Of a DNA stretch of 64,000 nucleotides, positions 4,584 to 41,745 are shown in pieces. The stretch is from a virus. The position numbers were made by a program, and so were the translations under genes. Location of the stretch: IMG/VR virus record IMGVR_UViG_3300045988_087270, positions 1 to 64,000 of that record. The stretch is one strand, 5' to 3'. Position 1 is the stretch's first letter. Each line of letters opens with the position of its first letter. The notes beneath the pieces are model-generated. The model saw nothing but the letters and a program-made list of their open reading frames with translations. It did no database searches and was not told the DNA's origin.

Positions 4584-4920
4584 CATTGTAGATCCAATAA
4601 TATTTCAATATTGCTCTTTTAGAGTATTGATATATACTATGTGGGGAAAAGAAGCTGAAGATAAAGTATTTGAAGAATATAAAAAGTTAAGAGCTATAAA
4701 ATAAATATGGAAGAACATATTGATAACTCTATTAAAATAATTGATGATATGTTACACAACATAGACATTCTTATAAATTTATTAAAGTAATTATTAAACA
4801 TTTATTAAAATAAGTAAACAAATTTGGTTGCAAGACGGCAACACTTTTAGTCAAGGTAGTTCTACAACAGTATCTCATCCTGAAGGATTACCGAAAGGTA
4901 TTTATGAAGTAAAACTCTCA

Positions 4921-5076
4921 ATGGCTGGATTTTATTTAAGTAAAATCGCTGAGTCTTTTACGTTTGATTACAAACTGTATGGTCTAAATCAAAAATTTAT
5001 TGATTATGTCTTAAAGACATATGAGAACACTACAGGAAATTTAGGTATTTTGCTTGATGGAATCAAAGGATCTGGT
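4921..5076 (+). CDS. AAA+ ATPase, exon 1 (ends in Walker A ...DGIKGSG)
   Basis: ORF ends ...LDGIKGSGK then stop. Joining GGT(5076) to AAA(6388) gives GIKGSGKTVTAKKL, a complete P-loop. Start uncertain: ATG 4921 or TTG 4828. Confidence 0.6.
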
Positions 5077-5184
5077 AAAATTTAAGCAATTTCAGTAAGC
5101 TTAAATTTTTAAAAATTTTATATTTATTTGGATTTAATAAAATTTCATATATATTATAGTAATATTAATTTTAACTATATAAAT

Positions 5185-6237
5185 ATGAAATTTGTAATTA
5201 ATGAAGAATTAGGAGAAAAAATTAAGACTTTGTACTTAATAGATGGATTAAGCTGTACTAAGATTGGTAAAGAAGTAGGATTATCTACTTCTACTATAAG
5301 TTCATTTCTAAAAAGAAATGGGATTGAAGTAGTTAATAAACAAAACAAATTATTATTTGATCTAGATAAAGATATTATTCCTAAATATGAGCAAGGAATA
5401 AGTTTATCTAAATTAGCTAAAGAGTATCATACTTCTATCCAAACTTTGTCTAGAAAATTAAAAGCTAGAGGAATTGAAATAATTAATCATCAAAATGAAA
5501 CTAAGTTTAATGAACATATCTTCGATGTTATAGATACAGAGGAGAAGGCTTATTGGCTAGGATTTATATTTGCTGATGGTTATATTTCATCAAGAGATAA
5601 TGGTTTTGAACTATCTTTAAAAGGCTCTGATATTGAACACTTACATAAATTTAATAAGTTTATGGAGCATAATAAAGATAATGTCAAATTAGGGGAAGTT
5701 AAGTATAAAGATAAAACTTTTTTAAGGTGTCGCTGGGGAATAGTTAATAAGCACTTATGGAATACTCTAAATAATTTAGGATGTACTCCAAGAAAAAGTT
5801 TAACTCTTCAATTTCCTAATATTTCTGAAGAATTAGAAATTCCTTTTATTAGAGGGTACTTCGACGGAGATGGCTGTTTAAGTTACTATTAGAAGACAAA
5901 AATTATACCAAAAGCTTCATTTTTAGGAACTAGACAATTTTTAGTAAAGATACAAGCAATATTAAATAATTTTAATATAAAAAGTTCTTTAGTAAAAGAT
6001 CCCAGAATGGAAAGTACATTAATATTAAATATATCTTCAACAAATTCTTTAGATTTTTTAGACTTAGTATATAGTAATAGTTCCATTTATTTAGACAGAA
6101 AATATAAAAGATATAAAATTTTTAAAACTTGCCGTTCTAAACAGGAATGTTTAGAATTATTAGCGGGTGAAAACGGGGAAGGCTGTGATGCTAATCCCGT
6201 GGTAAATGAAGATAGTAACGAATCTTCATCACTGTAA
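5185..6237 (+). CDS. LAGLIDADG homing endonuclease (intron-encoded) with in-frame TAG at 5890-5892
   Basis: YWLGFIFADGYISS and RGYFDGDGCLSYY motifs. The product aligns full-length to the HE at 33854-34906 across the TAG; the track splits it into 5128-5892 and 6007-6237 in the same frame. Confidence 0.65.
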
Positions 6238-6344
6238 CGCGTAGAAGTTGAAACTCTTATAAGAGAATATAATACTTCCAAGAGCGCCCGCTCTCCCAAT
6301 CATTTGAATGGAGAAAAAGGTACGCTGAGCTATAACAAATAAGA

Positions 6345-6387
6345 AGTTATAGAAATATAGATAAAAAGCTATATGATAACAATACTG
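6345..6387 (+). repeat. conserved intron 3' terminal element, copy 1 of 3
   Basis: tatagaaatatagataaaaagctatatgataacaatactg; copies at 35016-35058 and 22660-22702 with covarying stem positions. Confidence 0.7.
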
Positions 6388-7275
6388 AAAACAGTCACCG
6401 CAAAGAAACTTTGTAATCATTTACAGCTTCCTGTAATCTTAGTACAATCAATGGGCAATGATACTAATGATAAATTAATAAAATATTTATCTACAGCCAT
6501 TGATTTTGACTGTATCTTCTTCTTTGATGAATATGAGAAAGAATTTAAAGATTCTTCTGATGTTCTTTCTTTTATGGATGGCACTTATAACTCTATTTAC
6601 CGTAAGATATTTTTACTTACTACTAATGAGTTGAATGTAGATTCAAATCTTCTTGGAAGACCTTCTAGAATAAGGTATAAAAAGTCTTTCGGTAATCTTT
6701 CAGAGGAAGTTACTAGAGAATTTCTTAATGACATCTTGGAAGATAAAACTGCTATAGAAAAGGTTATAAAATTAACTCATTCTATGAATATTATTACTAT
6801 AGATTTGATTAAAGCTATAGCAACTGAAATTAATATTCATGGAATAGAGTCTCTTCCTGATATTAAAGAAACCTTTAATATTGAGTTTTCTAGTTTCGCT
6901 TATTTATATAGGGAAATACAACTTAGACATTGTGATTTAAAGTTTACTCCTGAAAATATAGATAATATATTGAAAACTTATAATAAGTATAAGGAACTTA
7001 AAAAGAAAGGTTGGGAGAAGTATTCTGATGAAGAAAAAATGTTCGATGCTAAATGGTCTGCCATATTTAGTGAGGATTATGGTTCTACTATTGAAGATAA
7101 AGAGTTAAAATATCTGAAACCTGGAGACTATTTTGATGATCAGCGTATATTAATGGTAAATGTTAAAGAAAAGTATATAGTAACTATGACTGATTATGGA
7201 TATATTATAATATATTTAATTAATAGTTGCTATTCTGCAAGTAAAGCTACAGGTCTTATAAATTATAAATTATAA
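6388..7275 (+). CDS. AAA+ ATPase, exon 2
   Basis: Begins KTVTAKKL; Walker B FFFDEYE, sensor-1 LLTTN, GRPSRIRY arginine-finger region. Confidence 0.6.
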   Translation, partial: KTVTAKKLCNHLQLPVILVQSMGNDTNDKLIKYLSTAIDFDCIFFFDEYEKEFKDSSDVLSFMDGTYNSIYRKIFLLTTNELNVDSNLLGRPSRIRYKKSFGNLSEEVTREFLNDILEDKTAIEKVIKLTHSMNIITIDLIKAIATEINIHGIESLPDIKETFNIEFSSFAYLYREIQLRHCDLKFTPENIDNILKTYNKYKELKKKGWEKYSDEEKMFDAKWSAIFSEDYGSTIEDKELKYLKPGDYFDDQRILMVNVKEKYIVTMTDYGYIIIYLINSCYSASKATGLINYKL

Positions 7276-12213: not shown

Positions 12214-12294
12214 GTCTAGATAGCCAAGTGGTCAACGGCAGCAAGCTGTTAACTTGCCCCGAAAGGTTCCTAGGTTCGAATCCTAGTCTAGGCG
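12214..12294 (+). tRNA. type-II tRNA (Ser-like body, G73) with anticodon loop cuGUUaa
   Basis: Acceptor gtctaga/tctaggc, T-arm ctagg-ttcgaat-cctag, 3-bp D-stem with 11-nt D-loop, 12-nt variable arm, anticodon stem gcaag/cttgc; positions 34-36 read GUU. Confidence 0.55.
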
Positions 12295-12302
12295 CAATGA
12301 TA

Positions 12303-12365
12303 TATGCCTCTTATTTCTAAGGTTCATTACCTTCTCGAAAAGAAATGTGTACACAAGAGGCGCCT
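12303..12365 (+). other. structured RNA-like element (7-bp closing stem gcctctt/aagaggc, internal hairpins)
   Basis: Nested stems atttct/agaaat, aagg-ttcatta-cctt (T-arm-like) and palindrome gtgtacac, immediately 5' of the next tRNA. Confidence 0.3.
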
Positions 12366-12442
12366 GGAGTATTAAGCCCTGTTGGTAAGGGAACTAGACT
12401 GTCACTCTAGTAAAACTAAGGGTTCGAGTCCCTTATATTCCG
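12366..12442 (+). tRNA. tRNA-Asp(GUC), non-canonical D-arm
   Basis: Acceptor ggagtat/atattcc (one G-U), anticodon stem ctaga/tctag with loop cuGUCac, T-arm aaggg-ttcgagt-ccctt; the D-stem pairs only ccc/ggg. Confidence 0.5.
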
Positions 12443-12587
12443 CAAATAATGGAGAGCACCTAGCGTTTAACTGGGTAGTTGTTAGAGGTAGCGGTGGCAA
12501 TCCACGAGTATGCCTGATAGCTCAATATATTATTAGAATATGGTCACGATAGTTTGCCCGTCTAATGCCATATTTGCCTTTATTTAA

Positions 12588-12659
12588 GCTTCAATAGCAC
12601 AGTGGTAGTGCAGCATTCTTGTAAAATGCAGGTCGTAGGTTCAAATCCTACTTGAAGCT
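12588..12659 (+). tRNA. tRNA-Thr(UGU)
   Basis: Canonical cloverleaf: acceptor gcttcaa/ttgaagc, D-stem gcac/gtgc, anticodon stem gcatt/aatgc with loop cuUGUaa, T-arm gtagg-ttcaaat-cctac. Confidence 0.8.
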
Positions 12660-12668
12660 CTCTAATAT

Positions 12669-12740
12669 CGTGGGTTGTAGCAGTGGTAGCTTGTTTGTCT
12701 CATAAGCAAACGGTCATCGGTTCGAGTCCGATACCCACAA
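12669..12740 (+). tRNA. tRNA-Met or Ile2 (CAU)
   Basis: Acceptor cgtgggt/acccaca (1:72 C-A mismatch), anticodon loop cuCAUaa, T-arm atcgg-ttcgagt-ccgat. Confidence 0.65.
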
Positions 12741-12746
12741 CAAAAT

Positions 12747-12830
12747 TGTCTAGTATGTGAAGTGGTCAAACATGACTGACTGTAAATCAGCTGCTATTTA
12801 GCTTCGGGAGTTCGAATCTCTCCTAGACAA
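12747..12830 (+). tRNA. tRNA-Tyr(GUA), type II
   Basis: Acceptor tgtctag/ctagaca, anticodon loop cuGUAaa, long variable arm gctatttagc, T-arm gggag-ttcgaat-ctctc. Confidence 0.7.
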
Positions 12831-12850
12831 CTAATTAAAAAATAAATAAT

Positions 12851-13327
12851 ATGGAAAAAACTTTTAATTATCAATCTGATGCAAATTTCTATGATAAAAA
12901 GGATTTTATTATAGCTGTTTTAAAAAGAAAAATAAATAGTTTTAAAGAGTATGATGCTAAAAGAAAAAAGCATTATGCTGGACTAGAACAAAAAATTGGA
13001 GAATTAGAATCCTATATAGATGAATTAGAGAACGGACTTAGTATAGAATCTTTAAGTAATAAAATTCAATCTTTAGAAAATGAGATTGAGAAACAGAATC
13101 TTAAAATTAGAGAGTTAAGAGCTAAAGTTAATATATCTTTATTTGATGATACTAAGTCTTTTAGAGAATTAGAATCTATGGCAAATAATTTAAAAGACTT
13201 TAATAGCATGAAATTAGCTATTAAAGATCTTAGAAAACGGCTTAAAGATAACAAAAAAACTATATCTGATTTAATATATGAATTAACACAAGCTAAACTT
13301 AAAATAAAACAATTAACTGGAGAGTAA
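12851..13327 (+). CDS. coiled-coil hypothetical protein
   Basis: 158 aa; heptad-rich LENE/IEKQNLKIRELRAK. Confidence 0.5.
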   Translation: MEKTFNYQSDANFYDKKDFIIAVLKRKINSFKEYDAKRKKHYAGLEQKIGELESYIDELENGLSIESLSNKIQSLENEIEKQNLKIRELRAKVNISLFDDTKSFRELESMANNLKDFNSMKLAIKDLRKRLKDNKKTISDLIYELTQAKLKIKQLTGE

Positions 13328-13337
13328 TCTCCAATTT

Positions 13338-13411
13338 GGGGCGTCGGCTCAAGTGGTCAGCACCTGCTTTGCACGCAGGCATTCTTAGGAGTTCGAATCT
13401 CCTACGCTCCA
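13338..13411 (+). tRNA. tRNA-Ala(UGC)
   Basis: Acceptor ggggcgt/acgctcc with the G3:U70 identity pair, anticodon stem cctgc/gcagg with loop uuUGCac, T-arm aggag-ttcgaat-ctcct. Confidence 0.8.
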
Positions 13412-13431
13412 CTATTAAATTAAATATTTTT

Positions 13432-13770
13432 ATGAAAATAACTATTGATACAGACAATTTAGAAACATTAAAGTATAAAACTGAAGATGTTCCTATTTTA
13501 ATGAAGACTTTCCAGCAGTTAATGAATAAATTAATGTATGAAGTAATAGGAAATTATTATTCTGTAGATGATGTTCCTAAGGATGCTCCAAAATGGGTAA
13601 AAGAAGAACTACTTAATGTAGGAAAAACCTGTTATGTGGATGGACATATGGATAAAGAATATGTTTTTAAAGGTATCCAAGAAACATTTGAGGATTATTA
13701 TTATATATTAGAAAATAATAATAAAAAAATTTCTTATTCTTCATGCGTTGGAAAGATATCTTATAAATAA
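13432..13770 (+). CDS. hypothetical protein
   Basis: Track ORF 13336-13770 begins inside tRNA-Ala; the real start is probably the internal ATG (MKITIDTDNL...). Confidence 0.5.
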   Translation: MKITIDTDNLETLKYKTEDVPILMKTFQQLMNKLMYEVIGNYYSVDDVPKDAPKWVKEELLNVGKTCYVDGHMDKEYVFKGIQETFEDYYYILENNNKKISYSSCVGKISYK

Positions 13771-13825
13771 TGTAATGATATTTCATATAACATAAAAAGC
13801 TAAATCAGAGTAATTACCTGACTAT

Positions 13826-13853
13826 GGGAGTTTTACTGTTCTCCCGCTTTTTA
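13826..13853 (+). terminator. possible intrinsic terminator
   Basis: gggag...ctccc stem followed by GCTTTTT. Confidence 0.35.
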
Positions 13854-13888
13854 TGTAAATTTTAAACAGTAATTAAAAATAGTACAAT

Positions 13889-14605
13889 ATGAAGAAATTT
13901 AAAGAATGCACCAATGAAGAAATTAAATTAGCTATATCAAATAGCGAAAATTTAAATTAGGTTTGTAAGTAGTTATTATGTACCGATAATACTTACAATA
14001 GAAATAAAATAAGAGATTTTATTAAATCAAATAATTTAAGTATAGCACATTTTAAAACTAGATATTCTAAGGAATCTTACGATAAAAATCCTAAAGTATG
14101 TAAATACTGTGGAAAAATTATTCCTTATGAAAAGCGAGTTAATGATTTTTGCAATCATTCTTGTGCAACTAGTTATAATAATATTGGAGTAGTACGCAAT
14201 AAACCATCTTTACCTACTTATTCACTCTGTTTGAACTGTGGAAAAGAAATTACTAAAGGAAATAAATATTGTAATAATACGTGTAAAGCAGAATATGAAA
14301 GAAAGGAATATATTAAAAGATGGAAAGCAGGGGAAGAATCAGGTATTATTGGAAAAGATAAAATAGCTACAGCAGTAAAAATATATTTGAGAGAAAAATT
14401 TAATAATTCTTGCCAAAAATGTGGGTGGAATTAGGTAAATTATTTCACAGGTTTAGTACCACTGCAAATTCATCATATTGATGGTAACTGTTTAAATAAT
14501 CAAGAATTCAATCTTTAGCTGCTATGTCCTAATTGTCATGCCTTAACGGAAAATTTTGGCTCTAGAAATAAAAATTGTACTAGAATTGATAAAAGAAAAC
14601 GATAA
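13889..14605 (+). CDS. HNH homing endonuclease with four in-frame TAG codons (13958, 13970, 14432, 14516)
   Basis: Single frame from ATG 13889 to TAA 14603-14605. Zn-ribbon pairs (CKYCG, CLNCG, CQKCG) and an intact HNH motif (HHIDGN...NLxLLCPNCHA) lie downstream of the third TAG. The only internal stops are TAG. Confidence 0.55.
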
Positions 14606-15007
14606 TAACAAAGCTCTAAAATACTAGTTACAGGAGCAACGTAACTTATAGGGTGCCTCTCAACGATGCATACTCGCCTATTAGGTGTCGTAGAACCTAC
14701 GAACTGGAATGGTTCGATGTTTTTTGCATTCCTACAGAATCCTAAATAATAAAAATAGAGACCATAAGATTGTCTCTAACAGGGGCAATTTACCTGGGAT
14801 TCTTAATTTTTTAAACTCTCCTCCTAGATACTTTATAAGTTAAACTTTAAATTTGATTTATTATGATGAAAATTTTAAAAAAAACTTTAAAAGCCATTAA
14901 GAAGGGTTGGATTTGGTATGCTAATCAGTATTGTAGATTATACATGCCTCCAATTATTTAATCTTATTATTTAATTTGTAAGTACCAAAGGGGTACTTAC
15001 TGATGTT

Positions 15008-15981: not shown

Positions 15982-16182
15982 ATGGTTAAGTATAAAAAGT
16001 GTGGAGCATTACGAATTAGAATAGATGGTAGTAAATGTATTGTAGTAAATCTTAAATTACCATCTATTACTAGTCGTAGTACTTCATATTTAGATTTTTT
16101 AAGAGAAACTATTTTAGATAGTAATAAGCAAGAGTTTAATAATGCTGTAGAAACAATCTGTACTAGGATTAAATCTTTATAG
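15982..16182 (+). CDS. hypothetical protein
   Basis: 66 aa ORF. Confidence 0.35.
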   Translation: MVKYKKCGALRIRIDGSKCIVVNLKLPSITSRSTSYLDFLRETILDSNKQEFNNAVETICTRIKSL

Positions 16183-16212
16183 TATTATATTATCTTACTT
16201 ATCATAACGCAG

Positions 16213-16431
16213 ATGATTATTAGTAGAAAATTATTAATATTATTAAACATGTTTATTGATTTAACATTAGACAATAACAATATTAATAGAAGATATTTAA
16301 TAGCCGTAGATGATATTTCCTTAATAGAAGAGGTTGGTGAAAGCTCTTATGTTATATTAAAAGGTGGAAGCTGCTTATCTGTGAAGGAATCTATTGATTA
16401 TATAAAATCTTTATTAGACAATGTCAAATGA
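16213..16431 (+). CDS. hypothetical protein
   Basis: 72 aa ORF. Confidence 0.4.
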   Translation: MIISRKLLILLNMFIDLTLDNNNINRRYLIAVDDISLIEEVGESSYVILKGGSCLSVKESIDYIKSLLDNVK

Positions 16432-26973: not shown

Positions 26974-27744
26974 ATGAATTTGAATTTTGGTGGTCTTGGT
27001 GATATTAATCCTACAAGTAAGAAAGGTCTTCGTCCTTATGGAATTTATCTCGTTCAGTTAAAAAATGTAGAAGTTAAGGAAGGTCAAGGTAAGCAAGACC
27101 CTACTACAACTTGGAAATCTCTCGTACTTCATTTTGAAGGAGAAAAAGGAACTTATCAAGAATCATTGTTTTATCCTAATGAAAATTCTGCTAAAAGATA
27201 TGAGGGTAAGAGAAAGGATTCTAAGGGTGTAGAATTTCCTTATGTACTTCCTTCAGCGTTTGAACAGCTTAAGGGTTTTATGCTTCATATTATAACAGTA
27301 GTAGGAGGTGATAAGGCTAAAGAATTGTTTGTGACTAAAGCTCCTACTTGTAAGAGTACTGACCAATTTATGCAACTTTTCCAGGCAGTATTGACTAAGT
27401 ATTGTATGAAAAAAGATTTCTACTTAAAGCTTAGTGGTCGTAAGGAAAAGAAAAAGGATGAAAAGGGAGTAATGAAGGAGACTGGTAATGTATTTGCTAA
27501 GATTCCTGATATTGGAGCTATTAATAGTGATGGACAGTTCTATATCCGTGATAATTTTGCTAGTTTAGAGGAAGATAAATTGTCATTCTCTAGTTATGAA
27601 ATTAAACAGAAAGAGGATATGGAGAAGCGTAAGCCTACTACTCCTGTGCCAGCAGCTGATTCAGAAGAGGCTAAATCTATCGACTCTACTGAGGGCAAGG
27701 AGGCTCAAGATGAAGACTTCGACGCTATGCTGGCAGATATGTAG
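26974..27744 (+). CDS. putative ssDNA-binding protein
   Basis: Position in the replication module; acidic C-terminal tail EDFDAMLADM like phage SSBs. The call rests on little evidence. Confidence 0.35.
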   Translation: MNLNFGGLGDINPTSKKGLRPYGIYLVQLKNVEVKEGQGKQDPTTTWKSLVLHFEGEKGTYQESLFYPNENSAKRYEGKRKDSKGVEFPYVLPSAFEQLKGFMLHIITVVGGDKAKELFVTKAPTCKSTDQFMQLFQAVLTKYCMKKDFYLKLSGRKEKKKDEKGVMKETGNVFAKIPDIGAINSDGQFYIRDNFASLEEDKLSFSSYEIKQKEDMEKRKPTTPVPAADSEEAKSIDSTEGKEAQDEDFDAMLADM

Positions 27745-27767
27745 TAATTACAAAGTAAGTAGTTTTT

Positions 27768-33786: not shown

Positions 33787-33853
33787 AGAGTTTTGTAATA
33801 AATTTTAACATATTTTAATTATTATATTTCCGTGGAAGAGTTATAATACTCTC

Positions 33854-34906
33854 ATGGAAATATTAAATAATTTTTTAAATTCAGAATTAAAGCTAACTGC
33901 TTTTTGTAAAGCTAATAAAGTTAGCCGAGATTATTTAGAGCAATTATTAAAAGATAATAGCTATTCTTATAGTGTATATTTAACGGGTATAACTATTAAG
34001 AATTTAAATTTAGCTATAAAAGATTATATTAATTCTGATGCAGGATTACGTGCTTCCGCTATAAAATATAATATTGGAACACAAACTTTAAAAGCTCATT
34101 TAGTAACTTTAAATCTTTATAATCCTAATAAAAAGGGTAAAAAAGAAAAATCTTACAATGAACATTTTTTTGACAGTATAGACACTGAAGAAAAAGCTTA
34201 TTGGTTAGGATTTATATTTGCTGATGGTTATATTTATAGTTCCCCTCTAGATACATCCAAAGAAAGGATAGATTGGAACTTTGAACTATGTGCTAAAGGG
34301 GATGACAAAGAACATATGGAAAAATTTGCAAAAGCTATTGGATACAATAAAGAATTACATGTTACTAAAGCTGATAAATATGGACATACTAGATGTAGAG
34401 TATGTTTATCCAGTGAAATTTTATGGAAACAACTAAATTCTTTAGGATGTACTCCTAGAAAGAGTTTAACATTAAAATTTCCTGATGAAAGTATTTTTAA
34501 ATCCAAAGATTTAATTAGACATTTCATTAGAGGTTATTTTGATGGTGATGGATGTATTAGCTATGCTAATAAAGAACATACTATTCCAGTATATCAAATA
34601 CTTGGAACTAAAGAGTTTTTAAAGGTTATTATAAGTTATTTAAATATAGAAGAAACTTTATTTCATAATCATAATAATAAAAAAGAAGTTACTATGTATA
34701 TACAGGCTTCTAATAGAAAGGCTATGTATGTATTACATAAATTATATGATAATTGCTCAATCTATTTAAATAGAAAATATGAAAGATTTATTTATTTTTG
34801 CCGTATATTTGAGAAATCAAATATGTTAAAACAAACCAATATCGGTGAAAGCTGTGATGCTAATACCGAGATAACTACAGAAACTAAAGAGTCTGCAGCA
34901 TCGTAG
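33854..34906 (+). CDS. LAGLIDADG homing endonuclease (intron-encoded, intact)
   Basis: YWLGFIFADGYIYSS and RGYFDGDGCISYA motifs; full-length homolog of the HE at 5185-6237. Confidence 0.7.
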   Translation: MEILNNFLNSELKLTAFCKANKVSRDYLEQLLKDNSYSYSVYLTGITIKNLNLAIKDYINSDAGLRASAIKYNIGTQTLKAHLVTLNLYNPNKKGKKEKSYNEHFFDSIDTEEKAYWLGFIFADGYIYSSPLDTSKERIDWNFELCAKGDDKEHMEKFAKAIGYNKELHVTKADKYGHTRCRVCLSSEILWKQLNSLGCTPRKSLTLKFPDESIFKSKDLIRHFIRGYFDGDGCISYANKEHTIPVYQILGTKEFLKVIISYLNIEETLFHNHNNKKEVTMYIQASNRKAMYVLHKLYDNCSIYLNRKYERFIYFCRIFEKSNMLKQTNIGESCDANTEITTETKESAAS

Positions 34907-35015
34907 AGCGTAGAACTTGAACCTGAGAAATCAGAATAAAATAGTTCCAAGAGTGGTTTGCCCTCAGCACGTAAAGGTGGAGGTGAATATGTACGCCGAG
35001 CTATAGTAAATAAGA

Positions 35016-35058
35016 AACTATAGAAATACAGATAAAAAGCTGTATGATAACAAAACTG
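35016..35058 (+). repeat. conserved intron 3' terminal element, copy 2 of 3
   Basis: ctatagaaatacagataaaaagctgtatgataacaaaactg. Confidence 0.7.
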
Positions 35059-37623: not shown

Positions 37624-39363
37624 ATGTTATTTATGGTAATAAAGAGAGACGGAAGTAAAGAAGAGTTTAACAGAAACAAAATTAGAGATGCTGTATTAAA
37701 AGCTTTTGGAGTTACCCAAAATTCTAATAAGACAATGGACGAAGATATTTACAGAGCAGTTACTGAAATAACTAATTCTGTAGTAGAGACTGAAGATCAA
37801 TCTATTGAAGATATTCAAGACCAAATTGAAGAACTTTTAATGGATTTAGGATATCACGACGTAGCTAAAAAATATATTCTATATCGTAAAGAACGTGAAG
37901 ATATTAGGAATCATGCTACTAGAGATATTGAATTTATTCATAATTTTGTAAAATCTGATAATACTGCTAATGCTACTATTGACGACAATAGTAATGTAGG
38001 AACTAAAGGTATTGGAGTATTAAACGCTGAAATACATAAAGTCGATAATAAACTTACTAATACAGAATGGTGGGAAAGTTTTGTAAAGAAGAGAGACCCT
38101 AACTTTAATATAAAAGTTATGAGGAATGATTTTAAAACTATTTTATATCCTCATGATTCATCTTCTCAAGTAGGAGAACCATATTGTATGGCAGCTTCTA
38201 TGTATCCTTTCTTGTTGTCTGGATTAGAGAAATTAGGAGGTAAATCAGCAGTTCCAAAGAACCTTGATTCACTCTGTGGTATTTATGTAAATCTAAACTT
38301 TGCATTAGCTTCTGAAATTAAAGGAGCAGTAGCTACTCCTGAGTTTCTGATGTATATGGATTATTTCTGTAGAAAAGAATGGGGAAATAATTATTATCTT
38401 AAACCAAGTGTAAGAATAACTACAGATTACTGTATAAAACAGAAAACTATTGGTAGTCAAATTGATCAATATTTCCAACAAGTAACTTATTCTATTAATC
38501 AAATAGCTGGAGCTAGAGGAATGCAGTCTCCATTTACAAATTTTTCATTCTTCGATAAATATTTCTTTGAAGGTATGTTTGGAGAATTTGTATTTCCAGA
38601 TGGAACAAAGCCAGAATGGAATTCTACTAATTGGTTACAAAGACGTTATTTACATTGGTTAAACCAAGAAAGATTAAAATGTATTTTAACATACCCTGTA
38701 TGTAGCTATGCTTGCTTAACAGATAAGGAAGGTAATTTTAAAGATTTAGATACTTTCCATTTTATATGCAATGAATATGCTCAAGGAAATTCTTTCTTTA
38801 CTTATTTATCTCGTAGCGTAGATAGTTTAAGTTCATGTTGTCGTTTACAGAATGCAGTACAGGAAAATACATTTAATACTACTAATGGTCAAATAGGTGT
38901 AATGACTGGTAGTAAGAATGTCATCACTCTTAATTTAAATAGAATTATTCAGGATTGGCAGCATACTTGGTCTGATTATAAAGACCATATTGATGTTAAT
39001 ACCAATAGATGCTGTTTCCCAGTAGATTGGATTACACATAAAGATTTCCAAGAAGGAATTAAGAAATATATAGAAAATATTCTTGAAAGAGTTTATTTGT
39101 ATCAATATGCTTATAACGACTTAATGCATTGGTGCAAAGACCATCATTTATATGCTGCTTATGATGCTGGTTTTATTAATCTTGATAAGCAGTATTTAAC
39201 TATTGGAATTAATGGCTTAAATCAGGCTGCTGAATACTTAGGAATGGAATGTAATAATAATATTTATTATAAGACATTCTGTAGATTAATATTCAGTACC
39301 ATAAAAGAGCAGAATAAGAAACATAAAACTAAAACAGCTCAATTTAATACTGAACAAGTGCCT
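37624..39363 (+). CDS. nrdD: anaerobic ribonucleoside-triphosphate reductase NrdD, exon 1
   Basis: N-terminal ATP-cone (VIKRDGSKEEFNRNKIRDAVLKAF); large class III RNR body; ends ...FNTEQVP. The ORF continues only 10 codons into the intron before a stop. Confidence 0.7.
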
Positions 39364-40625
39364 AGACGTGTGGGCACTATAAATCTCTTTTAATTGACTC
39401 GAAACTCCTTAAATTAAGGACAACGAGGGGCAAGCAATAATTATTATAATTATGGGCAGCCTGAGAGACTAAATAAAGAGAATTTTAAATAAATTTATTT
39501 AAAGTATATAATAGTCCGAACTCTATGGTAACATAGAGAGAGAAAATCGAAGAATTTTCTCCGTTAATAATATAATATACAAAATAATTTTGATTCCCGA
39601 GGATGAGGGTCTATAATTGTTCTATAACAGTAAATATAAAAATTATAGTTTATGGAACAAAAATTAGACATTTTAAAAGTAAGAAATTTAGTAAAAGAAA
39701 AAAGAGTAAGAAAAAGAATACCAGATGAATGTACCTGTGAAGTATGCGGAAGTACTAAAGGAGAAGGGAAACTTAGAAGATTCAATGATTATATAGTTTG
39801 TGAAAAACACTATGACCAATTAAATAAATATGGTAAAATCACCGATACTTCTAAAAGAAAACACAAAAAGCCTTTAGAAAAATGTAGTATTTGTGGAGGT
39901 TTAAAAATGGCTTCTTTTGAAGGAACCCCATATTGTCGTAAACATTATATCCAAATAACTAGGCATGGGGTTATTAGAGATAGAACTATCTATGATGCTA
40001 ACGAATATGTTATTCATGAAGATTATGTAGAAGTAAAATGTTTTGATAAAAATGGTAATTATAAAGCTAGCACCAAAGTTGACTTAGAATTTTTACCTGA
40101 TATTAAAAAACATAAAATCTATATAAGAAAAAGTGGTATTAAAGAATATGCAGCATTTTCAGGAATAGAAAATGAAGAAGGTTCTGGTAAAAAATACTTT
40201 GTACATAGATATATAATGCATCTTCACGATAAAAAATATAATATTGATGAAGTAGTAGACCATATCAATGGGGATTCTTTAGATAATAGGATTTCAAATC
40301 TTAGAGTTTGTACTCAAAAAGAAAATTCTTATAATAACAGAGGAACAAAATTAAATCAAAAAATTAAAGGAGTAAACTGGCTTAAAGTAAATAAAAAATG
40401 GACGGCTAGAATAATGTACAATTATAAAAGTATACATCTTGGAAATTATTTTACTTATGCTGAAGCTGTATTAGCTAGAATAAAAAAAGAACAAGAATTA
40501 TTTGGTGAATATGGTCCTAACAAAGATTTATATTATATTATTAATCATCCTTCGCCAATAGAGGAATTAAATAAAATATTAGAAATTCCTTCTATAGAAG
40601 GAGCGTAACAGAATGGCAGAAAGCG
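39364..40625 (+). mobile_element. group I intron 1 of nrdD with HNH-AP2 endonuclease ORF
   Basis: P1: exon gtgcct pairs with IGS gggcac at 39373-39378. R-like gagagacta, S-like aagtatataatagtccgaac, P9 hairpin ctatggtaacatagag. Ends ...gtaacagaatG. Splicing gives FNTEQVP|AESASVKLY. Confidence 0.7.
39652..40608 (+). CDS. HNH-AP2 homing endonuclease (intron-encoded)
   Basis: HNH_3 motif VDHINGDSLDNRISNLRVCTQKEN, AP2-like KGVNWLKVNKKWTARI...; paralog of 42035-42805. Confidence 0.65.
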   Translation: MEQKLDILKVRNLVKEKRVRKRIPDECTCEVCGSTKGEGKLRRFNDYIVCEKHYDQLNKYGKITDTSKRKHKKPLEKCSICGGLKMASFEGTPYCRKHYIQITRHGVIRDRTIYDANEYVIHEDYVEVKCFDKNGNYKASTKVDLEFLPDIKKHKIYIRKSGIKEYAAFSGIENEEGSGKKYFVHRYIMHLHDKKYNIDEVVDHINGDSLDNRISNLRVCTQKENSYNNRGTKLNQKIKGVNWLKVNKKWTARIMYNYKSIHLGNYFTYAEAVLARIKKEQELFGEYGPNKDLYYIINHPSPIEELNKILEIPSIEGA

Positions 40626-40674
40626 CTTCAGTAAAACTTTATAATAGAGATAAGAAGGATGGGTAGACTCAATG
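40626..40674 (+). CDS. nrdD: NrdD exon 2 (49-nt mini-exon, AESASVKLYNRDKKDG)
   Basis: Matches the conserved class III RNR segment AES.S..(F/L)...DK; flanked by intron ends ...cagaatG and 5' exon-end U with IGS gcccat at 40684-40689. Confidence 0.6.
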
Positions 40675-41406
40675 CCCATGTAAAACTCTTACTGATTGAC
40701 TTGGAAGTCCGGTGTGGCGACAGGGCGCAAGCTGTAGCATTTTATATGTTACTTGCAGCGTGAACGACTGAGTGTAAGAGACTTATAAGGATAATATGTG
40801 AATATTGCTACTTATAGGTATGCGACAGTCTGAACTATACAAAGTATAGAGAGAATTCGAAGAAATTCTCCATTTATTTAGTGGGACAATTTTTTATTTT
40901 GACCCAGGGATAAAAATGGTTATATTAGTACCAGATAATAAAATATTAATTTAAACTAATTTTAATTGTATGGATACTAAAATTTGTAGCAAATGTGGAA
41001 GAGAACTTCCACTAGACCGTTTTGAATCTGGAAGAAATCAATGTAGAGATTGTCGTAATGCTAGACGCAGAAAATTAAGACAGGAGCATCCTGAAAAACA
41101 TAGATAGGAAGCTTCTAAAAGGCAAGAAGAGCAAACTAAATGGTTATATTCTCTAAAAAAGAAATGTTTAATATGTGGTGAAACTGAACCAGTATGTTTG
41201 GATTTTCATCATAAAGATCCTAATGAAAAAGATTTTACTATAGGTAAACATAGAAATAAAAGTAAAGAGAATTTAATGAAAGAGATAGAAAAATGTGTTT
41301 GTGTTTGCGCTAATTGTCATAGAAAAATTCATGCTGGTATTATTAATCTAGAAGATTACCTGAATAAATCATTTCCTCAAAGCCCAGAGGAAAGCGTAAC
41401 AGAATG
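40675..41406 (+). mobile_element. group I intron 2 of nrdD with HNH endonuclease ORF
   Basis: P1: exon atgggt pairs with gcccat. R-like gtgaacgactgag, S-like gcgacagtctgaac, P9-like hairpin ctatacaaagtatag. The 3' end gcgtaacagaatG is identical to intron 1. Confidence 0.65.
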
Positions 41407-41407
41407 A
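40970..41407 (+). CDS. HNH endonuclease with in-frame TAG at 41105-41107
   Basis: CSKCGRELPLDRF...CRDC zinc ribbon, then TAG, then CLICGE...CANCHRKIH HNH motif in the same frame. The terminal TGA uses the first nucleotide of exon 3. Confidence 0.55.
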
Positions 41408-41745
41408 CTGGGTTCCTACAGACACTAATCTGTATGCTAGTTATATATTTAAACCTAATGATACACATATAAGTATACTTGATAAAATTATACTTCATAG
41501 TTCTGAGTTCGCTGCTGATGAATTAGATGGAGGTTCTGCTTGTCATCTTAATTTATCTGAACATTTGAGTCAGAAACAATATGAGTATTTACTTAAATTT
41601 ATGGCTAAAGTAGGTTGTAAATATGCTACTTTTAATATTCCTAATTGTGAATGTGAAGAGTGCCATTTTATAGCAAAACAGCCGTTTAGTAAATGTCCTA
41701 AATGTGGCAGTACTCATGTAAGTCTATGGGATAGAATTATTGGGT
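41407..41745 (+). CDS. nrdD: NrdD exon 3 (Zn ribbon plus start of glycyl-radical motif, ends ...WDRIIG)
   Basis: YWVPTDTNLYASYIFKPND...CECEECHF...CPKCGSTHV..RIIG matches the NrdD C-terminus (T4-like CPKCGST...RITGY). Confidence 0.65.

Follow-up and report, generated by a model that had tools for sequence, protein, structure and literature searches.

The DNA analyzed here, called the window throughout, is a stretch of 64,000 nucleotides (nt) from a virus (IMG/VR record IMGVR_UViG_3300045988_087270, positions 1 to 64,000). It represents the early (replication) arm, written in the standard code, of a gut phage of roughly 120 to 180 kb that is distantly crAss-like. Inside its ATPase gene, a group I-like intron encodes a LAGLIDADG homing endonuclease with a single in-frame TAG. 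We consider it very probable that this gene is intact, that its TAG stands for glutamine and is decoded by a phage transfer RNA (tRNA) with a CUA anticodon, tRNA(CUA), and that the full nuclease is made after such decoding starts. The nuclease genes that bear on this conclusion are as follows.

5185 to 6237, plus strand: LAGLIDADG homing endonuclease gene of 350 codons, with two helix-turn-helix (HTH) repeats followed by two LAGLIDADG motifs (from translation and Pfam)
5890 to 5892, plus strand: in-frame TAG at codon 236, the only in-frame stop inside 5185 to 6237
13889 to 14605, plus strand: HNH homing endonuclease gene with in-frame TAGs at 13958, 13970, 14432, and 14516; ends TAATAA
33854 to 34906, plus strand: paralogous LAGLIDADG gene, in a second intron; no internal TAG, terminates in TAG
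40970 to 41407, plus strand: HNH endonuclease gene with one in-frame TAG at 41105

Among public records, the nearest to the window is MT835492.1, a phage scaffold of 121.6 kb that comes from human feces and is unannotated. It is ~93% identical to the window and collinear with it, and the differences are mostly insertions and deletions of mobile elements. MT835492 is evidently partial, since relatives reach 169 to 181 kb.

The LAGLIDADG gene on both sides of its TAG

Translation of 5185 to 6237 confirmed the single in-frame TAG at 5890 to 5892 that had been reported in a first-pass annotation of the window; the gene itself terminates in TAA at 6235. The product matches Pfam LAGLIDADG_3 (E = 1.7e-10, above the cut-off) and, N terminally, HTH domains. 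Its LAGLIDADG motifs, YWLGFIFADGYI and FIRGYFDGDGCL, are both near-invariant in the family alignment, and the two LAGLIDADG helices by which the double-motif, monomeric class is recognized, each with its catalytic acidic residue, are both present. Homologs of the protein number 7,240 at E ≤ 1e-10, many of them full length (~350 amino acids). The gene had also been described as aligning residue by residue with its paralog at 33854 to 34906. The alignment does run through the TAG, but it covers 293 residues at 42% identity (E = 5e-64) and contains 25 gap positions, so that part of the description does not strictly hold.

Read as glutamine, the TAG at 5890 is flanked by LSYY-Q-KTK (wider stretch, GDGCLSYYQKTKIIPK). 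In the alignment of homologs, it sits in a length-variable loop just past the second LAGLIDADG helix and falls exactly between that helix and the DNA-binding sheet of the second domain. The inserted amino acid is therefore not revealed by this site alone. The TAG is retained in four more independent DNA copies, namely, MT835492, two metagenome contigs, and one ENA scaffold, and likewise in IMG/VR contigs L013 and L017 (copies with the conserved TAG are L001, which is MT835492, L005/L006, L007, L013, and L017). Codons beside the conserved TAG change between copies, for example, TAC to TAT and AAG ACA to AGA GCT. The ratio of nonsynonymous to synonymous substitution rates (dN/dS) is 0.04 to 0.09 upstream of the TAG and 0.3 to 0.66 downstream of it, and in four independent copies the downstream 114 codons contain no further stop and no frameshift. 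Judged by these patterns, 5185 to 6237 reads as an intact gene that is selected on both sides of its TAG.

The MT835492 copy carries a 38-bp frameshifting deletion right after the ATG (L001:4714-4731; window 5199 to 5236). Directly downstream of the deletion, a TTG in the original frame could restart translation, and the copy is intact beyond that point, TAG included.

TAG as a sense codon in the late arm

The window ends ~0.9 kb short of the start of the late arm, which was invisible to the first-pass annotation for that reason. In MT835492 the arm is included.

MT835492, 63.7 to 121.5 kb, minus strand: late arm, structural genes

Under the standard code, open reading frames (ORFs) of at least 100 amino acids cover 0 to 28% of this arm; with TAG as sense, coverage is ~100%, and reading TAA or TGA as sense gives nothing comparable. 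The 29 ORFs obtained in this way contain 605 in-frame TAGs in 19,078 codons (3.2%), and all of them end in TAA or TGA. The capsid region of eight close IMG/VR relatives behaved in the same manner, with ORF coverage rising from 0.14 to 0.23 under the standard code to 0.69 to 0.88 with TAG as sense in 8 of 8 cases; together with MT835492, these make nine relatives of ~93% identity in which the late arm is recoded. Among 72 more distant loci (58 to 62% capsid identity), 65 are standard-code and 7 are TAG recoded. The late arm of this lineage is assigned to genetic code 15 (TAG = glutamine).

Glutamine as the meaning of TAG

We compared 84 late-gene TAG sites with relatives for whose translation the standard code alone was used. 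The residues facing these sites were 18% Q, 16% E, and 11% K, where the background of Q is 3.6%, and the substitution profile was fitted best by true glutamine sites (log likelihood of −217, versus −240 for glutamate). Codon usage points the same way. The late arm has 353 CAA, 73 CAG, and 605 TAG codons, while early non-nuclease genes have 283 CAA and 129 CAG; the CAG share of glutamine-type codons is thus 7% in the late arm versus 31% in the early arm, as though most CAG codons of the late arm had given way to TAG. Amino acid composition of early versus late proteins was ambiguous as a guide to the meaning of TAG.

The closest database homologs of the HNH protein show Q at all four TAG positions, a count that is partly circular because the gene caller of the collection had already translated TAG as Q (code 15), so that the Qs of P0121, P0158, and P0173 include TAG. 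This residue check was replaced by a check at the codon level, along with the profile against relatives translated under code 11. The HNH TAG at codon 210, in the motif NL[Q]LLCPNCH, is a genuine CAA in homologs P0141, P0158, and P0173. At codon 24 of the 13889 gene, the TAG is aligned with CAG in P0141, which has zero TAGs, and P0173 has a TAG within the invariant PLQIHHIDG motif where other homologs have CAA. On codon alignments and substitution profile together, TAG in this lineage reads as a glutamine codon. The frequency of TAG (3.2% of late codons) and its glutamine-type profile argue against decoding of UAG as pyrrolysine, and the "tRNA-Pyl" label given by ARAGORN reflects the CUA anticodon alone.

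The public collection is itself inconsistent in its treatment of such genes: P0004 and P0005 are truncated at the TAG (code 11), while P0121, P0158, and P0173 show Q (code 15). The cluster of P0005 has 363 members.

A tRNA(CUA) in close relatives

A tRNA(CUA) of 72 to 74 nt, with the anticodon loop CU-CUA-AA, a clean cloverleaf, and a score of 63.6 bits against the Rfam tRNA model, is present in exactly six IMG/VR contigs, all of this lineage. It lies ~13 kb upstream of the equivalent of the window start, on the strand of the late genes (opposite to the window genes), and turned up in the relatives after we had walked one further anchor upstream. It was not found in MT835492 (ARAGORN, including relaxed settings), in the tRNA arrays adjoining a 677-amino-acid gene in 16 relatives, in the next upstream block, or in the late-arm loci of relatives. 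Contig IMGVR_UViG_3300045988_076860, ~94% identical to the window, has the TAG-bearing LAGLIDADG intron (L017), the tRNA(CUA) (L190), and the recoded late arm (L100); nuclease, tRNA(CUA), and recoded arm therefore coexist in one genome.

The window has its own tRNA array.

12214 to 13412, plus strand: array of six tRNA genes (Asn, Asp, Thr, Met, Tyr, and Ala; ARAGORN and Rfam)

None of these six has a CUA anticodon, and neither Rfam nor ARAGORN, which gave only noise at relaxed settings, found a suppressor tRNA in the window. The first-pass annotation had also expected back-up stops after TAG. The two TAG-TAA tandems that it cited do exist, at 854 to 859 and 27742 to 27747, but there is no enrichment of such stops (Mann-Whitney P = 0.48; Fisher P = 0.46), and the next TAA or TGA follows at a median of 7 codons after TAG, 8 after TAA, and 4.5 after TGA. 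It had named the lack of both back-up stops and a suppressor tRNA as grounds for giving up the idea that the TAGs are translated; applied to the window, that rule rejects an idea that is correct.

TAGs in other nuclease genes of the window

All six in-frame stops in nuclease genes are TAG (5890, 13958, 13970, 14432, 14516, and 41105), as had been noted before. With random one-step nonsense mutation in these genes, TAG is expected in 15 to 17% of cases, and six of six has a P of ~1e-5 to 3e-5. The TAG-bearing genes (5185, 13889, and 40970) contain zero in-frame TAA or TGA codons and zero frameshifts, and their terminators are TAA or TGA. In other contigs, members of the HNH family also carry TAGs (6 in P0158, 3 in P0121, and 2 in P0173); a local search of the fetched loci for further HNH homologs returned too few for use.

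Both TAG-bearing HNH genes lie in insertions. The gene at 13889 to 14605 is within a 1.27-kb insertion that MT835492 does not have, and the gene at 40970 to 41407 is inside a 2-kb insertion in the nrdD gene. The latter (39360 to 41408) interrupts nrdD (37624 to 39393), is also absent from MT835492, and consists of two tandem HNH genes, one fully standard-code (39652 to 40608) and one with the TAG (40970 to 41407). At 13338 to 14609, a tRNA-Ala(UGC) gene is followed by the 1.27-kb block, which holds an ORF (13432 to 13770) and the HNH gene with the four TAGs; MT835492 lacks the block, and its tRNA-Ala(UGC) at this site differs in sequence. This arrangement suggests that a nuclease-linked cassette replaced the resident tRNA gene. 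Across the seven nuclease genes (5185, 13889, 33854, 39652, 40970, 42035, and 51594), CAG accounts for 4 of 47 CAA-plus-CAG codons, compared with 129 of 412 in other early genes and 73 of 426 in the late arm. The low CAG content could reflect a history in the late code or merely the lower GC content of mobile genes.

Outside the nucleases, 1051 to 1803, 1800 to 2531, and 15982 to 16431 were tried as read-through genes and rejected, as each consists of adjacent separate genes in relatives. The TAG-joined ORF pairs concerned (1051/1387, 1800/2211, and 15982/16213) are separate genes there, and the TAGs at 1381 and 16180 are true stops, with the flanking ORF halves separate or in different frames in relatives. 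Sense TAGs within the early arm are thus, by comparison with relatives, confined to mobile nuclease genes.

The group I-like intron in the ATPase gene

The boundaries of the host intron, and of a second member of its family, were placed as follows.

4828 to 5076, plus strand: exon 1 of the AAA-type ATPase gene, ending GGA TCT GGT (G-S-G of Walker A)
5077 to 6387, plus strand: group I-like intron, 1,311 nt; the 5′ exon ends in U and the intron ends in G
6388 to 7275, plus strand: exon 2 of the ATPase gene, starting AAA ACA GTC (K-T-V)
33787 to 35058, plus strand: second family member, a 1,272-nt intron within an exonuclease gene; absent from MT835492, with a precise junction

The intron splits the Walker A motif of the ATPase (GSGK/T). 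The spliced product reads GIKGSGK/TVTAKK and gives a continuous match to phrog_2376 (ATPase) over residues 3 to 303. The earlier proposal that the LAGLIDADG gene is intron encoded is borne out by ten close relatives in which the ATPase gene is uninterrupted: the intron is precisely absent, and exon 1 joined to exon 2 of the window aligns with them without a gap at the junction. Five relatives carry the ATPase intron or an ORF-less remnant of it. An AAAA ambiguity allows five registers, and only GGU/AAAA...CUG/AAAA gives both U at the exon end and G at the intron end. The two introns of the window interrupt unrelated genes at an identical exon context, GGT^AAA (Gly-Lys). The predicted cleavage target of the nuclease is the intron-less ATPase allele, at the junction GGATCTGGT^AAAACAGTCACC.

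The 3′ core of the ATPase intron is common to the second intron (33787 to 35058) and to a third in MT835492. We aligned five sequences from these three intron paralogs for covariation. The 69 core pairs are 97.9% paired, versus 28 to 45% when the partners are slid, with compensatory changes in 28 pairs; in the P3-like long-range helix, 7 of 8 pairs covary.

6162 to 6376, plus strand: intron core helices, named by analogy with group I
6162 to 6169, plus strand: P3, 5′ strand
6173 to 6200, plus strand: P4/P5
6201 to 6233, plus strand: P6
6239 to 6243, plus strand: P7, 5′ strand
6244 to 6278, plus strand: P7.1-like element
6285 to 6292, plus strand: P3, 3′ strand
6293 to 6313, plus strand: P8
6321 to 6325, plus strand: P7, 3′ strand
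6330 to 6352 and 6355 to 6374, plus strand: P9-type hairpins
6387, plus strand: terminal G

The helix order P3-P4/5-P6-P7-(P7.1)-P3′-P8-P7′-P9 matches a group I core with a P7.1-type insertion. The candidate P7, of 5 bp, is invariant in the alignment and so has no covariation support. For P1, inspection gave a candidate guide, AUUCAGU, whose pairing with ACUGG leaves two U's facing each other at the splice site, with no G partner. The Rfam model RF00028 (Intron_gpI) gave no match on the intron or on a 327-nt ORF-less version at E ≤ 10, nor across the window at the gathering threshold or at E ≤ 0.5, and the class of the intron therefore rests on boundaries, topology, and covariation. We call it group I-like rather than proven group I, with self-splicing putative, because RF00028 fails, P7 is invariant, and the U·G pair of P1 was not found. 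An intron family with strong covariation and a group I-like helix order (window 5077 to 6387 and 33787 to 35058; L002:26330-26599) escapes the Rfam Intron_gpI model even at E ≤ 10.

The last ~25 nuclease codons (6162 to 6234) overlap the P3 5′ strand, P4/P5, and P6, and an upstream covarying hairpin (6134 to 6157) raises the overlap between ORF and structured RNA to ~34 codons; the TAA of the nuclease is in the junction just before P7. The conserved C-terminal family motif CRS..E..ELL....GE.CD.N may owe as much to constraint from RNA structure as to protein function. [quoted passage not shown] It folds better than shuffled controls (z = −4.6) and looks like a natural minimal intron left after loss of the nuclease.

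Proposed timing of nuclease synthesis and alternative explanations

Before tRNA(CUA) is active, ribosomes would stop at codon 235 and release a product without the second half of the nuclease. Once TAG is decoded, as the 600-odd TAGs of the structural genes require, the full 350-residue enzyme would be made, and the HNH genes at 13889 and 40970 would depend on TAG decoding in the same way. Full-length nuclease is presumably restricted to late infection. We infer that recoding is temporally late and that the delay of nuclease synthesis matters biologically.

Several observations weigh against this reading. The window itself holds neither the late arm nor the suppressor tRNA, and an exact-match search of IMG/VR did not return its own contig, so the case for recoding in its phage is made through relatives; its own genome presumably carries both. 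In four close relatives, the 10 kb examined contained no tRNA(CUA). An internal TAG is missing from four of the window's seven nuclease genes (33854, 39652, 42035, and 51594), and recoding is therefore not a general property of these genes. Retention of the TAG at 5890 among copies separated by a synonymous divergence (dS) of 0.1 to 0.28 is, alone, no evidence of selection for TAG. Finally, constraint on the LAGLIDADG gene is weaker downstream of the TAG than upstream, on small counts; this matches a C-terminal half that is more variable across the whole LAGLIDADG family, intact members included.

Intron nucleases commonly decay, and the 38-bp deletion in MT835492 and the loss of most of the ORF in L010 and L023 would suit a decaying pseudogene in which the TAG is an ordinary inactivating nonsense mutation. 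We regard this explanation as extremely improbable, given that six of six stops are TAG (P of ~1e-5), that the TAG is conserved across copies with 114 lesion-free codons and a dN/dS below 1 behind it, and that the lineage demonstrably translates TAG. The marks by which a pseudogene would be known, namely, mixed stop types, frameshifts, and neutral evolution past the first lesion, are absent from the TAG-bearing nucleases. Amber read-through had been the explanation offered in the first-pass annotation. Its core, that the TAGs are translated and are not lesions, stands; leaky read-through gives way to codon reassignment by tRNA(CUA) under code 15, restricted to the late genes and part of the nuclease genes. 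Leakage of a true stop through host near-cognate tRNAs, with a minor extended product and no reassignment, would accord with the absence of a suppressor tRNA from the window and with the use of TAG as the terminator of ~13 early ORFs. It is nevertheless very unlikely: relatives have a dedicated tRNA(CUA), leakage cannot serve late genes in which TAG makes up 3.2% of codons, and there is neither a downstream read-through signal nor a back-up-stop pattern. A third possibility is that two products are made by design, an early 235-codon N-terminal factor (DNA binding or maturase-like), comprising both HTH repeats and one LAGLIDADG domain, and the full nuclease later. The far stronger constraint before the TAG than after it and the position of the TAG exactly between the second helix and the second DNA-binding sheet speak for such a design, but the family-wide variability of the C-terminal half accounts for the asymmetry, and the HNH gene at 13889 has its four TAGs scattered from codon 24 onward, a pattern at odds with such a design. 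We consider this design improbable.

The alternative that deserves most weight accepts decoding as glutamine and denies the TAGs any regulatory role, attributing them to drift or to import from other recoded phages. Late suppression of TAG would let CAG-to-TAG changes pass in genes that are not needed early. Three of the seven nuclease genes carry TAGs, the only TAG of the LAGLIDADG gene is in a variable loop, HNH members in other contigs (P0158, P0121, and P0173) carry many, and the nuclease genes are CAG-poor, as late genes are. This account is a real possibility, although we lean somewhat away from it. It is hard to separate from gating of nuclease synthesis, since the outcome, no full-length enzyme before suppression, is the same; in Agate phages, a statistically preferential recoding of the intron nuclease was found, which suggests more than drift there (Borges et al., 10.1101/2021.08.26.457843). 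At the other extreme, the nucleases may use the late code as an expression lock, with the TAGs kept by selection so that cleavage needs the suppressor tRNA, a proposal that we think unlikely. If it were true, cleavage would occur only late in infection or in coinfection by a phage with the same code, early replication would be protected, homing and competitor exclusion would be limited to code-compatible relatives, and an intron moved into a standard-code phage would be silenced. The present data fit selected timing and mere tolerance of the nuclease TAGs alike.

Gene content and small RNAs of the lineage

The window has a GC content of ~29%, and nearly all coding is on the plus strand. A crude set of nonoverlapping ORFs under the standard bacterial code (code 11) covers 90% of it, with 66 TAA, 35 TGA, and 17 TAG stops. 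Family searches identified genes for replication and nucleotide metabolism, among them a Dda-like helicase, DNA polymerase fragments, NrdD, DNA ligase, the exonuclease, and the ATPase. The capsid protein encoded in the late arm of MT835492 has crAss-like phages as its nearest named relatives, at 22 to 26% identity; by this capsid match, the lineage is only remotely related to named Crassvirales, and its membership in the order is putative.

Other small RNAs were seen in the course of the tRNA searches. The window gene called as tRNA-Asn(GUU) (12214 to 12295) spans 82 nt and has a long variable arm, which gives it the type II shape that normally belongs to Ser, Leu, and Tyr tRNAs. Ahead of the region that corresponds to the window, relatives have a tRNA-like gene of 85 nt whose anticodon is UUA (ochre type) and a 73-nt tRNA gene (L089:3396-3480 and 5486-5558; homologs in L088, L091, L092, L095, L096, L098, and L180 to L190). 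The anticodon loop of the 73-nt tRNA has 6 nt and differs in sequence between genomes (CGTAGA, CGTAAA, and CGTTGA). An ochre suppressor would conflict with the universal TAA terminators of the late genes. Close relatives also carry a transfer-messenger RNA (tmRNA; L089:12038-12373, with equivalents in L008, L009, L011, L013, L017, L019, L020, and L023), encoded between the ATPase gene and the homologs of the window genes near 4.3 kb. Its Rfam score is 48.9 bits (gathering score, 47), and its tag peptide is ARVINMTPVSYAIAA. No tmRNA was found in the window or in MT835492 by ARAGORN or Rfam.

Discussion

The gene at 5185 to 6237 and the two HNH genes should be called intact under code 15 rather than annotated as pseudogenes or fragments. 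An anomaly of stop codons limited to a handful of mobile genes can betray genome recoding even where the recoded arm lies outside the sequence at hand, and the case strengthens the idea that code switching can time single genes outside late operons.

The E. coli supE suppressor is a tRNA-Gln(CUA) that inserts glutamine at UAG and is a weak host mutation. The tRNA(CUA) of the present lineage is like supE in anticodon and in the amino acid inserted and unlike it in being a phage gene that decodes hundreds of sense TAGs efficiently. Phage T4 has group IA2 introns in td, nrdB, and sunY, whose endonucleases I-TevI, I-TevII, and I-TevIII are of the GIY-YIG or HNH type, and it delays its intron nucleases through late promoters and an RNA structure that hides the ribosome-binding site. 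As in T4, the introns described here, which are group I-like, are located in genes of nucleotide metabolism or replication, synthesis of the nuclease would lag behind expression of the host gene, and the ORF loops out of the putative ribozyme while partly overlapping its core, with a P7.1-like insertion between the candidate P7 and P3′. Unlike in T4, the delay would come from the genetic code, the enzyme is a LAGLIDADG protein, and the Rfam group I model gives no match.

Dual-coded gut phages with code 15 were reportedly described by Ivanova in 2014. The present lineage resembles such phages in having its replication arm in the standard code and its structural genes in a TAG-rich arm on the other strand, TAGs aligned with glutamine, a phage tRNA(CUA), a GC content of ~29%, and a human-gut origin. 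It differs in that recoded codons also occur within the standard-code arm, where they are found only in mobile nuclease genes. In crAss-like and other gut phages, TAG-to-glutamine recoding limited to late genes has been described, with a suppressor tRNA detectable or not (PMC7886860; 10.1101/2021.08.26.457843), and decoding of TAG as glutamine in crAss-like phages was confirmed by proteomics (Peters 2022, PMC9523058). The layout of our lineage matches that of zeta crAss-like genomes, which are 145 to 192 kb long and intron rich, with replication genes in a forward block and structural genes in a reverse one (PMC7886860; PMC12386605). In one zeta genome, OLWB01000021, from a large, intron-rich crAss-like phage, the PolB gene contains intron ORFs with TGA (Yutin 2021, Fig. 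7c, PMC7886860). That gene, like the ATPase gene studied here, combines introns and alternative coding; in OLWB01000021 the host gene as well as the intron ORFs is TGA recoded, whereas the ATPase exons are standard-code and only the intron ORF has a TAG.

The closest parallel is found in Agate phages, in which a group I intron endonuclease within an early gene is TGA recoded, and for which Borges et al. infer that, owing to the in-frame stops, the nuclease is not produced until late (10.1101/2021.08.26.457843). In both cases, an intron-borne nuclease with the recoded stop of its phage lies inside an early standard-code gene. The Agate case involves TGA read as tryptophan, another clade, and another nuclease; here, the codon is TAG read as glutamine, the nuclease is a LAGLIDADG enzyme, and two HNH genes show the same feature. 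The phenomenon is thus already published for TGA-recoded intron nucleases, and what is new is the codon TAG, the LAGLIDADG and HNH enzymes, and a different lineage. The TAG-bearing LAGLIDADG gene joins the single published TGA case of a selfish intron nuclease written in the late code within an early gene.

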